A DNA stretch of 57,492 nucleotides from an uncultured Planctomycetales bacterium (GTDB lineage Bacteria > Omnitrophota > Gorgyraeia > Gygaellales > Profunditerraquicolaceae), in NCBI GenBank assembly GCA_964545575.1, contig CAZJFL010000010.1, positions 1 to 57,492 on the forward strand, written 5' to 3'. Below, one piece after another: positions 14,955-24,657 of this stretch. The notes below the pieces were generated by a model. That model was not told the origin of the DNA, did not search any database, and saw nothing but the letters and a program-made list of their open reading frames with translations. Both the position numbers and the translations under genes were made by a program. Position 1 is the stretch's first letter; every line of letters starts with the position of its first letter.

Positions 14955-15551
14955 TTATCTTCCGTACCTGGCCCTTAATTGCTCGCCCGTAGGAAGAGTA
15001 GGATAAAACTCGCCTTGCGGCCCGACAAACCCATTGGTATATCTAGCCAAGGTAATAGCCACATAGCCGCCGTTATCTCTGGGGACATTTATGATCACTG
15101 TTTCCCTGCTTCCTGTTTGGGCTTCCGGCGGTACTGGAGTGCTGGCAGCAGGCACATACACGACCTCAGGAGGAGATTCTACTAGCACTGGTCGTTCTAC
15201 CACAACATATCTTGTGCCGTAAGGCCGATAGTAAATATTATTGTATTCGTAATAGGGAACCCCTCCGACGTAGATAGTCCTGTAACCGTAAGGCAGATAA
15301 GAAACAGCTACCCCCAACGGAGGCGCCACTACACTAAAGCTAAATCCGAAGAGGCCTGAGGTGTAAAACAATCCGTTATAATAATCGTACCTATGGTTCC
15401 CGTGCCAGACCGGCTCGTGCCAACCCCCATGTCCGCCGCCACGCCCACCATGCCCACGCTGGGCAAATGCGCAGCTAAAAACTCCTCCATAAATCAAACT
15501 GATTACTGCAACCAAAAACAGTAACTTTTTCAAGAAACTTTTGCTAATCAT
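14955..15551 (-). CDS. Secreted Gly/Tyr-rich protein (DUF6515-like)
   Basis: Signal peptide; PPLGVAVSYLPYGY.TIYVGGVPYY. Confidence 0.7.
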   Translation of the reverse strand: MISKSFLKKLLFLVAVISLIYGGVFSCAFAQRGHGGRGGGHGGWHEPVWHGNHRYDYYNGLFYTSGLFGFSFSVVAPPLGVAVSYLPYGYRTIYVGGVPYYEYNNIYYRPYGTRYVVVERPVLVESPPEVVYVPAASTPVPPEAQTGSRETVIINVPRDNGGYVAITLARYTNGFVGPQGEFYPTLPTGEQLRARYGR

Positions 15552-15597
15552 TTTGCCTTACCTCCTTGTTTTTTGATTATACCACTTTTTTCTCAAA

Positions 15598-16794
15598 TTA
15601 AAATATAATTACGAGGCGGGCACCGGCAACCAGGTAAGTGCCGGAATGCTTTTCGGCTTGGGGATGCGTGACCACCTCCATATTGGGGATAAACTTGACA
15701 AAAGGATGCAGGCTAATGTTGTAGTAAACCTCATATAGGGTTTCGGCTGATCCTGACTCATTGGCAATACGGTAATCCTTTCCCGCAATAGACTGCGCTA
15801 CGCCTATCCCGAAGACGTCATCCTTTCTTCCCGGGATGGGCTCGCTCAGCTGGCCGCCCACTGACCAGAAATGTTCAATCTCGCGTACAACTTTATCGGC
15901 GAAACCGTAACGCAGGAATAGCGTAATGCGCCCTGTTACCTGCTGGTCAAAACTTATGCCGAAACCGCGGCTGTTAATTTTTCGTCCCGCTTCATCAATA
16001 CGCTCCAGGCCCTCATGGGCCAAGTGAAAGAGAAAACGGTAATTTCCCTTTAGTTTCCCGATCTGAGGAGAAAAACCTATTTCGCTGATAAATAAAGTCC
16101 CCTGAAAGCAGTTGGTCAGGCCCACGCGGGTAGAAGCTGCCTCCGCGTCAGAGGCGCCAACCTGAAAATAAAACCAGTCTAGCGGCTTGATCCCAGCCAT
16201 AGCCCCCAGGCCTTTTGAGGGAAAAGGAACGGTCAAGTTGTTGACCAGGGCGCCGGCCTGAAACTGGGTATCGTTGAGAGCCGCGACTTCATTATAATCA
16301 AACCAGTTAGAGAGGTCTAATCTTCCGGCTGCCAGATACAGTTTATCCGCAAAGAAATTCTGCTGGAGATAAAGTTCAGAAACATATAAATAAGATATCT
16401 CCCAGGCATTATAATTCAGGATAGAAAAATTAGGCAGCCGCTTATCTATCCCCAAATTATGGCCTCCTTCGATTTCAAAGGCCGCTAAGCCTCCCTTCCA
16501 GAGCTTCTGCTCCAGGCCAATATTGTAATACCAGGCCGGGCTCCATTTGCCCTGATGTATTTTGGAATGCGTTGCAACCTGACTCTGAGAGTTAATTATT
16601 ACCGCAAAAGTGGTGCCGTATTTATCCTCCCACTCCTTCCTGAAGTTTTGTAATTTTCCCGGCCAGCCTTTTAGCTCTAGCTCTGTTTCTGCTTCTTTCT
16701 CGGACTCGACAGATAATTGAAAGGGGATCTCCGCGGCAAAAGCAAGATGAAAAGATAAACATGCGGCTGTAGCAAGAATAAATATTTTCTTCAT
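15598..16794 (-). CDS. Carbohydrate-selective porin, OprB family
   Basis: Signal peptide, ELYLQQ, E.LYEVYYNI, C-terminal Phe. Confidence 0.8.
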   Translation of the reverse strand: MKKIFILATAACLSFHLAFAAEIPFQLSVESEKEAETELELKGWPGKLQNFRKEWEDKYGTTFAVIINSQSQVATHSKIHQGKWSPAWYYNIGLEQKLWKGGLAAFEIEGGHNLGIDKRLPNFSILNYNAWEISYLYVSELYLQQNFFADKLYLAAGRLDLSNWFDYNEVAALNDTQFQAGALVNNLTVPFPSKGLGAMAGIKPLDWFYFQVGASDAEAASTRVGLTNCFQGTLFISEIGFSPQIGKLKGNYRFLFHLAHEGLERIDEAGRKINSRGFGISFDQQVTGRITLFLRYGFADKVVREIEHFWSVGGQLSEPIPGRKDDVFGIGVAQSIAGKDYRIANESGSAETLYEVYYNISLHPFVKFIPNMEVVTHPQAEKHSGTYLVAGARLVIIF

Positions 16795-20760: not shown

Positions 20761-21594
20761 CTATTCGCTTATGTAGGCGTCTGCGGGCATGCCGGGCTTT
20801 AAGTCCAGGCTCTGGTTATCGACTTTTACCTTGATACGATAAACCAGTTTTACGCGCTCTTCAGTTGTCTGTATCTGCTTAGGAGTAAACTCTGACTGGC
20901 TAGAGATAAAAGAAATCCTGCCCTGATAGACTTTATTGGGATAGGTGTCTGTCTTGACATCTGCTTTCTGGTTAAGCTTTACCCGCGCAAGATCAGTCTC
21001 ATTGATGTAGGCGGTGACCCAGATATTATGCAGGTCTATTACCGTAAAGACCGGCGTGCCGATCTGAACTACCTCTCCCGGCAGAGAACTCTTCACTAAT
21101 ACATAGCCGTCAAGTGTCGCAGTTAGGTCCGCAAATCCTAAGCGCGTGTTTGCCAGGTCAAGCTGGGCTTTTAACGCTCCTACGTTAGCCTTATCCGACT
21201 CAAACTGCGTCTTGGCTGCATCGCGCTGCTGCTGAGAATAAGAACCGGCCTTGAAAAGATTTTCCGCACGCTCATAATCTATCTTATCCAGTTCGTATTG
21301 ATATTCTACCGCTTTAAGCTCACCTAGCGCCTTATCCCTGATACTGGTCAACTCGTCTGTTTTTAATCTGGCTACGGCGTCTCCGACTCTTATCACCATA
21401 CCTTCATCAGTCAGAAGCTCTAAAATCTGACCCTGCACACGGAAAGAAAGCCGCACGTCATCTCCCTCAATGTTTCCGGAGACCTTGATTACTCCATCCT
21501 TGCGTCTCTCCTTCTGCAGGATATATTTTGTCGCAGCCCCCGCGATCAGAACGACTAAAATAATAACCGCTATCAATTTAATCTTTTTTTTCAT
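20761..21594 (-). CDS. HlyD-family periplasmic adaptor (YbhG-like)
   Basis: SEFTPKQIQT.EER..LVYR, LKPGMPAD. Confidence 0.92.
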   Translation of the reverse strand: MKKKIKLIAVIILVVLIAGAATKYILQKERRKDGVIKVSGNIEGDDVRLSFRVQGQILELLTDEGMVIRVGDAVARLKTDELTSIRDKALGELKAVEYQYELDKIDYERAENLFKAGSYSQQQRDAAKTQFESDKANVGALKAQLDLANTRLGFADLTATLDGYVLVKSSLPGEVVQIGTPVFTVIDLHNIWVTAYINETDLARVKLNQKADVKTDTYPNKVYQGRISFISSQSEFTPKQIQTTEERVKLVYRIKVKVDNQSLDLKPGMPADAYISE

Positions 21595-23158
21595 TCTTTG
21601 CCTCCCTGCCTGCCGGCAAGGCAGGCTTAAAATACATTTCTCCCATGGTCCGGTCTAAGTAAGCCTTGGCCATCAAATAATCATAAATCCCCTGGACAAA
21701 ATTTTCCTCTGCCTGGCTTAAGGCCAGCTGCGCGTCCAGTACGTCGAGGTTAGTGTTTTCGCCGTTATCATAGCTAGTGTTGGCGATCTTTAAAGCTTCC
21801 CTTGCTTCTTCGATATTATCCTTCTGCGAATCAATGATCGCCTGCGCCTGTTTTAAGTCAAGGCAACCCTGCCGGATATCCACCGCTATCTGGTCGCTGA
21901 TATTCTCTTTGGATAAATTCGCCTGCGCGTAGCGGGCTTTGGCCGCATCCACTTTTGCCTTAGTAGAAAACCCGTCAAAGATAGACATACCTACGGAAAG
22001 CCCGGCGTACCAGTTACTGTGCTTAGAATTATACATATTACTCCAGCTGTCAGAATTAAAGTTATAGCCTAAATTGGCATTTAGCTGCGGCCGCCAGCCG
22101 GCTTTAGCCATCTCAATTGACCACTTGCTCATGTCTATGCCTAAGCTTTTTAAGTTCATCTCCGGGGAATTCAGGTATGCAGATTTTAAAAATTCGCCTT
22201 CCCTGATTTCTATCAGCGAATAATCAAGGCGGTTATCTTTCAGGGCGATCTCATCCCTCATCTTAAAACTGAGCAGTTTCTTTAAATCCGCCATCAGCAG
22301 ATCTATCGCGTTCTTTGCTCTTACCAACTCGGGGATATACAACGATACCTGCACCTTTGACTGTAGCAGGTCAAACTTAGAAGATGCCCCCTGCTCAAAC
22401 CTGTTTTTTACGTCCTGATAATGCTCATTCGCATTATCCACCAGTTCCTGGGTGATACGCAGCGTTTCGTAACCCAAGAGCAGCCCGTAATAAAGCCTTT
22501 TCGCCTCAAATTCAATATCAAGTTTTTTGGCGCGCAAGGTCTCCTCCTGCGCGGTAAAGTCTATTTTTGCCTGCTTGAAATTGGCGATATTTGCGCCGCC
22601 GTTATAAATTGATTCAGTCAAGGTGATGCCGGCCTGATTATCGTTCTTATAACCGGTGAAGATGCCGATATCCTTCTTGGCATTAGGAACGGGTGTCCTG
22701 TTCAATACCGCTCCGTTTCGGGTATAGCCGGCTTCGGCGTTGACCTGGGGAAGGAATGCGCTTCTTGCCCCCATGATGTTGGCTTTGGCGACTGCAATCT
22801 CCTTTTCCTGAATCTGGATGTCTTTATTGTTTTTGAAAGCTACGGCTATTGTATCTTCCAGCGATAAGGTAAGGGGGCTATCCGGATTGTTCTCCTGGCA
22901 ATAACCGCAAGAAGGAAATCCGAATAGTAAAAAGATAAGCAGGACGGCGATCAGGTCGTCGACTCGCACATGGAAAGATTTTGCGATTTTTAACAAGGTT
23001 TTTATGGTGGGGTTGGGATTTTTACCGGACTCTACCTTAACTACCGTATTCAGTGATAAATCCGCGAGTTTCGAGAGACGGTCCTGCGAAATCCCCCGCT
23101 TCTCTCTTAAGTTCCTGATATTATTACCTATTATATTATAGCCGGCGCTCTTGTCCAT
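21578..23158 (-). CDS. TolC-family outer membrane protein with N-terminal XRE HTH fused to the signal peptide
   Basis: Residues about 10-70 XRE-like, then hydrophobic stretch, then LSLEDTI, ARSAFLP, LDVLDAQ. Confidence 0.88.
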   Translation of the reverse strand: MDKSAGYNIIGNNIRNLREKRGISQDRLSKLADLSLNTVVKVESGKNPNPTIKTLLKIAKSFHVRVDDLIAVLLIFLLFGFPSCGYCQENNPDSPLTLSLEDTIAVAFKNNKDIQIQEKEIAVAKANIMGARSAFLPQVNAEAGYTRNGAVLNRTPVPNAKKDIGIFTGYKNDNQAGITLTESIYNGGANIANFKQAKIDFTAQEETLRAKKLDIEFEAKRLYYGLLLGYETLRITQELVDNANEHYQDVKNRFEQGASSKFDLLQSKVQVSLYIPELVRAKNAIDLLMADLKKLLSFKMRDEIALKDNRLDYSLIEIREGEFLKSAYLNSPEMNLKSLGIDMSKWSIEMAKAGWRPQLNANLGYNFNSDSWSNMYNSKHSNWYAGLSVGMSIFDGFSTKAKVDAAKARYAQANLSKENISDQIAVDIRQGCLDLKQAQAIIDSQKDNIEEAREALKIANTSYDNGENTNLDVLDAQLALSQAEENFVQGIYDYLMAKAYLDRTMGEMYFKPALPAGREAKNEKKD

Positions 23159-23221
23159 ATATATTATAATGTATATATTATAATGCTCCTACTATAATAT
23201 AATGGATGCGGAAAATGTCAA
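23129..23221 (-). promoter_or_regulatory. Promoter with operator-like repeats
   Basis: TTGACA (23221-23216) with TATTAT 16 bp downstream; TATATATTATAATG x2 at 23158-23185. Confidence 0.6.
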
Positions 23222-23246
23222 GTAAAATTATCAGCCGCTAACTTTT

Positions 23247-24095
23247 TTAAAAAACCATCCCGGCGTATCCTACGGCCCGATAAAACTCAGGTTCAGGCGA
23301 AACATTAAAACTCGTGGTATATTCTAACAACACCCCTTTTTTAGCACCCAACGCCCCGGCCGCAGCAATAGTAGCTGCCAGAGCACCCGAACCGCAGGAG
23401 TTATAATGGCTCCTGGCCTCTTCTACTATGGCCTCGGATTCTAAATTAAGGGCTAACTTAATCATACGGCTGTCATTATCTTCCATCCATTCCAACGCCT
23501 TCCTGCCACGGCCGGCAGGGGCGAAGCCATAATCATCCCCATAGTGGGTCAGGTCAGTGGAGCCGATAACGACTATCTTTTTTTTGCTTCTAGCTATTAC
23601 CTCCCCGATTCTATGGCCCAACCGGCCTGCTTTATTATCGGGACTGATGCGTATCGGGACTATTTTAGCCGCAGGGAAAAAATATCTCAAGAAAGGCATC
23701 TGTACTTCCAAAGAATGCTCCCGGGCATGCGCCTCTGGGTCATCGGCCAAATCCTCCCCCGCCGCTTCCAGCAAAATAGACGCAGCCTCTGCATCAACTT
23801 CAATCGATCCGAAAGGAGTAACCCAGGAGCCGCGGCTAAAAAGTGAGTTTCTCTCCGGCAAACTATGGATTGCCCCTAAAAGTATAAAAGTATCGACCTG
23901 GTTTTTTTCTTTTATGCACTTAAATACCTTGGCTGCCACCCGCCCGGAGAAAAACCAGCCTGCGTGAGGCACCACCCCGGCCACGATATGACGAGGGGCC
24001 TCCGGTACCCGGAAATCCCGGACATACTCTTCTATCCTCTCTTTGCTGCATTCATCAGCGTAAAAATGTTGGGCTACGGGTTGCCTTACGGTCAT
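23247..24095 (-). CDS. AmmeMemoRadiSam system protein B (MEMO1 family)
   Basis: PHAGWFFSG, EHSLEVQMPFL, STDLTHYG, CG, VGYAG. Confidence 0.92.
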   Translation of the reverse strand: MTVRQPVAQHFYADECSKERIEEYVRDFRVPEAPRHIVAGVVPHAGWFFSGRVAAKVFKCIKEKNQVDTFILLGAIHSLPERNSLFSRGSWVTPFGSIEVDAEAASILLEAAGEDLADDPEAHAREHSLEVQMPFLRYFFPAAKIVPIRISPDNKAGRLGHRIGEVIARSKKKIVVIGSTDLTHYGDDYGFAPAGRGRKALEWMEDNDSRMIKLALNLESEAIVEEARSHYNSCGSGALAATIAAAGALGAKKGVLLEYTTSFNVSPEPEFYRAVGYAGMVF

Positions 24096-24235: not shown

Positions 24236-24439
24236 TTAGGCAACAACCTTAACGCTGATTGCACGCGGGCCTTTTTCGGATTTTTCCACTTCAAATTCAA
24301 CTGCCTGCTCTTCGTTCAGGGCGTCAAACTTGACATCGACCAAACCGCTCTGGTGGAAAAATAACTCCCGGCCGTCCTCATCGCTGATAAAGCCGAAGCC
24401 TCTTTCGCGCACTAGCTTCTTTATTTTCCCTTTATGCAT
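24236..24439 (-). CDS. Cold-shock protein
   Basis: RGFGFI, LFFH, KGPRA. Confidence 0.93.
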   Translation of the reverse strand: MHKGKIKKLVRERGFGFISDEDGRELFFHQSGLVDVKFDALNEEQAVEFEVEKSEKGPRAISVKVVA

Positions 24440-24456
24440 TTGTATCCTCCTTCTAG

Positions 24457-24657
24457 TTATACCTTGGCTACCTTTGTAGCTTGTTCGCCCTTAGGGCCTT
24501 TTTCGATTTCAAACTCTACTTCCTGACCCTCGTCCAGAGTTTTATATCCCTCACCTAAAATCGCCGTATGGTGCACGAATACATCGCTTCCTGATTCGGG
24601 AGTGATGAAACCGTAACCCTTTTGGTTTGAGAACCACTTTACTTTGCCTCTTGCCAT
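24457..24657 (-). CDS. Cold-shock protein
   Basis: GKVKWF..KGYGFI, DVFVH. Confidence 0.96.

Follow-up and report, generated by a model that had tools for sequence, protein, structure and literature searches.

An XRE-type DNA-binding domain in place of the signal-peptide n-region of TolC at the head of an efflux operon in a lake-water Omnitrophota bacterium

The cecR(ybiH)-ybhGFSR operon of Escherichia coli, in which genes of an HlyD-type adaptor, an ATP-binding cassette (ABC) ATPase and two ABC-2 permeases stand together with a TetR-type local repressor, CecR, is among the closest described counterparts of an operon found in a 57,492-nucleotide (nt) stretch of DNA (the window hereafter) of a lake-water Omnitrophota bacterium. 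The window operon resembles the E. coli one in its adaptor, ATPase, two permeases and putative local repressor, but the TetR protein has its counterpart in an XRE helix-turn-helix (HTH) domain that lacks a ligand domain and is joined to a TolC encoded by the operon itself, and the ATPase comes from two genes, whereas in E. coli it comes from one fused gene. The first gene of the window operon is an uninterrupted, ATG-started open reading frame (ORF) of 526 amino acids (aa) on the minus strand (21578-23158), as given by the ORF listing of the window, in which the HTH is followed directly by the hydrophobic core (h-region) of a signal peptide and then by TolC. The favoured reading, to which we assign as a whole a probability of about 0.6, is that this fusion of an autorepressor and a channel is genuine and selectively maintained, that signal peptidase would divide it into TolC and an 87-aa remnant made of the HTH and a hydrophobic tail, and that the remnant would still repress the promoter of the operon. 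A single precursor is likely to be the source of the channel as well as of its regulator.

Two other groups of known regulators are relevant. The controller (C) proteins of restriction-modification systems and other XRE autoregulators of about 70 aa are small and have palindromic operators over their own promoter. The window HTH resembles C proteins in size and fold class, in the palindromic operator-like sites at its own promoter and in the tight coupling to the next gene, but here the downstream gene encodes TolC, the intervening stop codon is gone and no separate small gene exists. ToxR, CadC, TcpP and BcrR are stable bitopic membrane-bound one-component regulators with an anchor of about 20 residues and periplasmic sensor domains. 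The fused protein is predicted to share with them a cytoplasmic N-terminal DNA-binding domain on one hydrophobic segment, but the channel that forms its C-terminal part must leave for the outer membrane, and the segment, of 13 residues, resembles a cleavable signal peptide.

The HTH domain was recognised by the Pfam model HTH_3 (PF01381) on aa 14-69 (E 4.3e-11, 43.1 bits, cut-off 23), and two stretches covering the predicted mature TolC were recognised by OEP (PF02321, E 2.9e-70). The TolC models of NCBIfam span aa 98-508, TIGR01844 (type_I_sec_TolC) giving 178.3 bits, which is below its cut-off of 225.15. At the junction, D67-D68 are followed by the core L69-F81, then by P-S-C-G-Y-C87 and then by Q-E-N-N-P-D; between the HTH and the core the window ORF has no Met, no stop codon and no Lys/Arg-rich n-region. 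Comparison with unfused orthologs indicates that the n-region has been replaced by a domain of 68 aa. In the AlphaFold2 model, built with 19 sequences, a helix at aa 66-79 is followed by disorder at aa 80-92 and by a confidently modelled TolC at 96-512, and in both this model and the NCBIfam alignment the TolC domain begins about 10 residues past the predicted cleavage site. The initial annotation, made from the letters of the DNA alone, had described an XRE HTH running in frame into an h-region, a cleavage motif and a full TolC, and the ORF sequence, Pfam and the residues at the junction agree with it in each part.

Several lines of evidence indicate that the junction is not an error. The window stretch is contained in five lake-water metagenome runs, with no RNA data set among the runs listed. 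In the four runs compared over 22600-23300 (of which three may be the source sample, while X5 is not flagged as source) the Logan contigs agree with the window at every letter of 22733-23300, without gaps; an erroneous loss of a stop codon or a frameshift near 22950, which the initial annotation had considered, is not seen. The evidence from relatives is the stronger. A protein database search with aa 1-130 returned 22 relatives, 19 of which carry both HTH_3 and OEP, so the architecture exists elsewhere; a fragment at a contig end that starts inside the HTH (P0016) brings the fused relatives to 20 of 22, and three of the database relatives are TolCs with ordinary signal peptides. The nearest relative (P0001), which comes from another data set and is 87% identical, has the same fused junction. 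The fusion is real and conserved.

The origin of the fusion may be read from relatives in which the two parts are separate. A scan of one genome per species revealed 456 places encoding an HTH of this type, of which the best 80 were kept. Among these 80, 66 are standalone genes of about 65-90 aa, which occur in many phyla but mostly in Patescibacteria; the standalone proteins are 57-79% identical to the window HTH in the best segment, and nearly all of them end with a V-D-D-L-I-K-type sequence. The other 14 are linked to TolC: three are fused (L013, L014 and L024) and 11 are split, one of the latter (L015) being the same sequence as L002. In the 11 split loci a separate HTH gene of about 65 aa ends with a DDLIK-type sequence, and the start of TolC, as read from the junction DNA, lies from -17 to +7 nt from its stop codon. 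The TolC n-regions of these loci are ordinary (M-K-K-R, M-R-K-R, M-I-R-K and alike). Taken together, the HTH stop codon and the ordinary TolC n-regions of the split loci mean that the fusion amounts to the loss of a stop codon, a spacer and an n-region. The ancestor would have had two translationally coupled genes, a small XRE autorepressor and then TolC; a small deletion would have taken the stop codon of the repressor, the few bases of spacer and, from the TolC signal peptide, its Met-Lys/Arg n-region, and the folded HTH would now stand in place of this n-region. In 11 of the 21 fused XRE proteins the last Lys/Arg of the HTH lies directly before the core. Two separate genes in relatives had been named by the initial annotation as a finding that would speak against the fusion; such genes do occur, in 11 loci, but they are read as the ancestral state and not as the sign of an error; the fused form recurs, with at least four transitions and with a second, unrelated domain. 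Since the stop-start coupling is already present in the split relatives, synthesis of the regulator and the channel at near 1:1 may predate the fusion.

Two lower-identity XRE relatives (L099 and L101, in genomes G233 and G226) are located a few bases before putative DNA-methyltransferase genes, recognised by motif alone, which suggests that the same XRE family may also serve restriction-modification systems as controllers in Omnitrophota. Weaker HTH matches in this phylum also precede putative methylase genes, judged by motif, and other genes.

The region upstream of the fused gene carries candidate operators (Table 1). The first base of the tandem operator-like repeat is the A of the ATG. 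The palindrome ATTATAAT is present within 170 nt upstream in all 15 XRE loci that have upstream sequence, the fused ones included (the duplicate pair L002/L015 being counted), and in none of the 7 winged-helix loci described below, whereas TATGCA/TGCATA is found upstream of 6 of the 7 winged-helix loci and of one of the 15 XRE loci; elsewhere in these loci the background of operator motifs is 0-0.25 per 170 nt. Thus, as far as can be told from motif occurrence, the operator palindromes track the type of the DNA-binding domain and persist in the fused loci. The 8-mer ATTATAAT alone is not rare in the 1.48-Mb genome (57 found, 42 expected), but three or more near-matches to the 10-mer are clustered within 80 nt, genome-wide, only at this promoter and in one coding region. 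The cluster in the coding region (C3:29131-29186) was rejected as a second target of the repressor; it is located inside a 540-aa ORF and is merely AT-rich coding DNA. No other copy of this HTH was found in the genome of the window, so that any use of the operators would fall to the fused protein or its remnant. A second promoter-like match (TGGACA, 16 nt, TATAAT; 11 of 12 positions) lies at 23130-23157 on the minus strand, over the fourth operator-like site; standing in the first codons, it may merely reflect the AT-rich operator sequence.

Another DNA-binding domain was found at the same position of related TolC proteins. At 11 orthologous loci in related genomes, six have a winged-helix-like domain of about 75 aa fused in frame before the h-region; at the others the winged-helix is a separate upstream gene (one locus), an XRE domain is split off (one) or TolC has an ordinary signal peptide (three). 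Two of the last three (L006 and L007) have a TetR gene upstream, which bears out the statement of the initial annotation that such operons normally have a separate regulator. The winged-helix domain gave only weak matches to MarR_2 and HTH_24 of Pfam (E 0.006-0.02, MarR_2 0.006), below the cut-offs. In a sample of 401 Omnitrophota genomes it occurs at 25 places in open frames of 518-578 aa and at two in frames of 94-95 aa, and in all 20 of the long frames that were retrieved the domain, the h-region and TolC form one ORF. The window protein is similar to these fusions in having a DNA-binding domain right before the h-region of an efflux-operon TolC and operator-like repeats at the promoter. 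The differences are that the window domain is an XRE/Cro-type HTH, an unrelated fold; that the operator-like motif is the ATTATAAT palindrome instead of TATGCA-type repeats; and that the XRE form has many split intermediates (11 loci). The genome of the window also encodes a 60%-identical relative of the winged-helix domain (G000:C4:108342-108572) inside a 206-aa open frame, and a form of about 185-215 aa is present in many Omnitrophota.

The fused and split states have interchanged repeatedly. A 34-row tree built from mature TolC domains requires four changes of the fused XRE label, at least two of them forced by starred branches, and retains 7 fused rows as a clade; a 19-row tree comprising three TolC subfamilies requires five changes of this label, at least four being forced. 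These trees were quick searches with Shimodaira-Hasegawa-like approximate likelihood ratio (SH-aLRT) support only, and left out L015 (duplicate), L024 (ORF ending early) and L031 (contig end). The fused/split state has changed at least four times across the three TolC subfamilies. The identity of the HTH is about 70% both within and between the subfamilies, while that of TolC is 64-66% within and about 21% between them. In two loci of the type B TolC subfamily (L023 and L025) the XRE gene and TolC head a MacB-type pump (HlyD-like adaptor, ABC_tran and MacB_PCD); since XRE loci head both ABC-2 and MacB types, the same small regulator fronts two pump classes.

Conservation within the fused proteins extends over both parts. 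In an alignment of 19 fused proteins, 21 of the 33 invariant columns lie within aa 10-59. Three fused genes gave nonsynonymous distances (dN) of 0.14-0.24 for the HTH and of 0.15-0.27 for TolC; the synonymous sites are saturated, for which the Nei-Gojobori method (NG86) yields no dN/dS ratio, and dN alone is reported. This pattern of substitution indicates purifying selection on both the HTH and the TolC parts. Together with the operator-like motifs and the lack of another copy in the genome, this conservation makes the HTH look as if it were still functional.

The h-region and predicted cleavage site of the fused proteins are like those of ordinary exported TolCs. The hydrophobic cores and uncharged stretches are alike, the median length being 20 residues for the fused forms (n = 21) and 16.5 for the split ones (n = 10), and small residues at -3/-1 before Q/E/D, scored by a permissive rule, are present in 21/21 fused and 10/10 split forms. 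The unfused orthologs P0020 and P0022 have signal peptides that end with Y-G-I-C before E/D, to be compared with C-G-Y-C before Q-E in the window protein; the h- and c-regions align with those of unfused orthologs, in line with the plausible signal peptide of the initial annotation. A lipoprotein signal (lipobox F-P-S-C84) was considered and rejected, the Cys being absent in P0001; the only position conserved here is the one preceding Q/E, at which C, S, G or A may stand. Genes of signal peptidase I, BamA and an RseP-type protease are present in the genome; the site-2 protease (RseP) homolog was recognised by TIGR00054 in one 367-aa frame with 290 bits summed.

The following sequence of events would fit these data. 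Transcription from a promoter with operator palindromes typical of this HTH, which are seen at the sequence level, and translation would give the 526-aa precursor, whose hydrophobic core would be inserted via Sec into the inner membrane with the N-terminus inside and the C-terminus outside, leaving the HTH in the cytoplasm. Signal peptidase I would then cut after C87, and mature TolC would pass to the outer membrane via the beta-barrel assembly machinery (BAM). The 87-aa remnant might repress the promoter from the membrane or be freed by RseP, and by either route one repressor would be made per exported channel.

The two proposed cleavages have parallels. RseP cleaves RseA, and we know of no RseP substrate that is a signal peptide bearing a folded DNA-binding domain, which is what the predicted remnant would carry. 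E. coli RseP is reported to clear signal peptides from the membrane and to cleave FecR (PMC8144685), and the activity outlined in that report would provide a known route of release for a signal-peptide-like remnant or a membrane-tethered regulator. The summary of a study of iRhom2 states that this protein is cut by the eukaryotic signal peptidase complex and that the freed N-terminal fragment acts in the nucleus (PMC7618786). The likeness, as far as the summary goes, is that signal peptidase is the proposed liberator of an N-terminal cytoplasmic gene-regulatory domain; iRhom2 differs in that it belongs to the eukaryotic endoplasmic reticulum, the proteins are unrelated and no signal peptide of a secreted partner is involved.

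Several findings weigh against processing and selective maintenance as proposed here. The cleavage-site rule applied is permissive. In the window protein and nine other fused forms an acidic V-D-D-L precedes the core without an adjacent Lys or Arg, D-D-L-(I/L) running straight into the core in 10 of the 21 fused XRE proteins, the window protein among them; the predicted N-in topology rests on a C-terminal flank that is more acidic. No Peptidase_S49 (SppA) was found in the genome, which is 94.5% complete, and no Shine-Dalgarno-like motif precedes the ATG of the 526-aa ORF. The predicted local distance difference test (pLDDT) score of the AlphaFold2 model is below 50 at residues 1-56, where helices are predicted at 9-21, 25-43 and 52-61, so that the assignment of the HTH domain rests on Pfam and homology. 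The XRE fusion is also rare: in the 401 genomes the HTH was detected at E <= 1e-8 in 81, but in a long open frame in only two (G000, the genome of the window, and G158, that of P0017), as against five with confirmed split pairs, the next six best matches being five split HTH-TolC pairs and one standalone gene. Such rarity would agree with short-lived fusions that are merely tolerated as much as with fusions that are selected. In L024 (CAYSCK010000084.1, 2507-3013) the junction is fused but the ORF ends at 168 aa; similarity to TolC in a tblastn comparison runs on to residue 329, and this may be a frameshift, a stop codon or an assembly error in the metagenome-assembled genome. The rarity relative to the split form and this one ORF that ends early mean that the fusion may be a tolerated one.

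The alternative that survives best, although it is unlikely, is a near-neutral fusion in which TolC would be made mainly from an in-frame GTG or TTG near the junction (in the window, the GTG of V64) and the full-length protein would be a by-product without a regulatory role. An in-frame GTG near the junction is present in L001, L013, L014 and L024, the split ancestors use stop-start coupling, so that ribosomes would already be there, and the rarity of the fused form (2/401 genomes) is what such a history could leave. Initiation at V64, however, would give M-R-V-D-D-L-I, a net-acidic n-region, as against the MKKR/MRKR type of every split form, no Shine-Dalgarno-like motif lies upstream of it, and there is neither a Met nor an ATG between the HTH and the core in any of the 21 fused XRE proteins; the internal start at the GTG of VRVDD, which the initial annotation had named as a possible refutation, is disfavoured on these grounds. 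Moreover, the fusion protein would be made anyway, as there is no stop codon, and the winged-helix version is mostly fused (25 long frames against two short ones).

A little less likely still is an uncleaved signal anchor, by which the protein would be a bitopic inner-membrane regulator of the ToxR/CadC type with its TolC part in the periplasm and never in the outer membrane. The order of the parts would agree with this, as the DNA-binding domain at the N-terminus is followed by one hydrophobic helix and then by a part in the periplasm. Yet the core of 13 residues is followed by Pro/Gly and small -3/-1 residues as in the signal peptides of unfused orthologs, the tether of about 10 residues would be too short for an outer-membrane channel, given the geometry of the TolC structure, and the gene, whose TolC part shows purifying selection, stands at the head of a complete pump operon.

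It is very improbable that the gene is decaying, i.e. that the fusion disables TolC export, the repressor or both and is heading for loss. The early end of the L024 ORF would agree with such decay, as would the HlyD-like gene after the fused TolC of L013 (4026-4864), which is split into ORFs of 133 and 153 aa where neighbouring loci have one 278-aa gene, and the genome of the window encodes two further TolC paralogs. Full-length fused ORFs, however, persist across lineages with saturated synonymous sites and a dN of 0.14-0.27, the fused clade of seven rows is retained on the tree, and the operator-like palindromes are kept. An assembly or sequencing artefact, that is, a lost stop codon or a frameshift, can be dismissed in view of the identical contigs of 4/4 runs, the fused relatives and the shared junction of P0001.

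A bolder version of the favoured reading is possible but doubtful: the cleaved 'signal peptide' of TolC would be the transcription factor of the operon, each export event would deposit one tail-anchored XRE repressor, and its release, for example by RseP, would set the level of repression, so that efflux transcription would be tied both to the number of channels exported and to the state of envelope proteolysis. Such a design would be favoured enough to have had a repeated origin, with at least four XRE fused/split transitions and the independent winged-helix origin.

Among the titles and abstract openings returned by literature searches, none describes a DNA-binding domain fused ahead of TolC or of another bacterial signal peptide. 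Should the remnant act as outlined above, the fusion would be an example from bacteria of a signal peptide that is a folded transcription factor, and it would provide a simple stoichiometric report of completed protein export back to the promoter. Beyond the winged-helix cases, the XRE form shows that a DNA-binding fold of another, unrelated kind can occupy precisely this position; its split relatives, in which the genes are separate but coupled from stop to start, are living intermediates that illustrate the origin of the fusion; and the operator-like motifs switch with the domain. It is also a compact natural test case for the permissible length and foldedness of the n-region of a Sec signal peptide; even a merely tolerated fusion would still show that Sec and signal peptidase accept a folded domain of 68 aa before the h-region.

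Downstream of the fused gene, in an operon whose genes overlap or abut, are located genes of an HlyD protein, two ABC ATPases and two ABC-2 permeases (Table 1), which supports the initial annotation in placing the fused gene at the head of a YbhGFSR-like ABC efflux operon. Its upstream neighbour, on the same strand, encodes a Memo-like protein, and no TetR-family repressor gene is present at that place.

Table 1. Coordinates in the window of the parts of the fused gene, its promoter region and the operon genes that follow it
Feature	Position	Strand	Basis or remark
Sigma-70-like promoter, TTGACA, 16 nt, TATTAT, 11/12 matches	23194..23221	-	Consensus scan alone
Third operator-like copy (over the -10 hexamer; 87% to repeat)	23193..23207	.	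Repeat search
Two tandem 14-nt copies with palindromic core ATTATAAT, candidate operators	23158..23185	.	Directly upstream of start; between -10 hexamer and ATG
Fourth operator-like half-site, in ORF codons 7-10	23130..23140	.	Repeat search
XRE HTH, hydrophobic h-region, c-region and TolC (outer membrane factor) in a single 526-aa ORF	21578..23158	-	ORF listing, Pfam, NCBIfam
XRE-type helix-turn-helix domain, aa 14-69	22952..23119	-	Pfam HTH_3, homology
Hydrophobic core L69-F81, 13 residues, counterpart of the h-region of unfused orthologs	22916..22954	-	Comparison; helix 66-79 in model
c-region P82-C87, Gly at -3, Cys at -1; predicted signal peptidase I site C87/Q88	22898..22915	-	Rule-based (-3,-1) check, unfused orthologs
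Predicted mature TolC, aa 88-526, two OEP repeats	21581..22897	-	Pfam OEP; model confident from residue 96
HlyD_D23, HlyD-family periplasmic adaptor; start overlaps TolC stop by 17 nt	20761..21594	-	ORF listing, Pfam
ABC_tran ATPase, 248 aa	20011..20757	-	Pfam
ABC_tran ATPase, 318 aa	19052..20008	-	Pfam
ABC2_membrane_3 permease, 377 aa	17922..19055	-	Pfam
ABC2_membrane_3 permease, 375 aa	16795..17922	-	Pfam

The permease genes are followed on the minus strand (14955-16794) by genes of an OprB-family porin (398 aa) and a DUF6515 protein (198 aa), which, given gaps of 0 and 46 nt, may share the transcription unit of the pump. Two adjacent small ORFs of 66-67 aa (24236-24657, minus strand) are cold-shock-domain-like in the appearance of their sequences.

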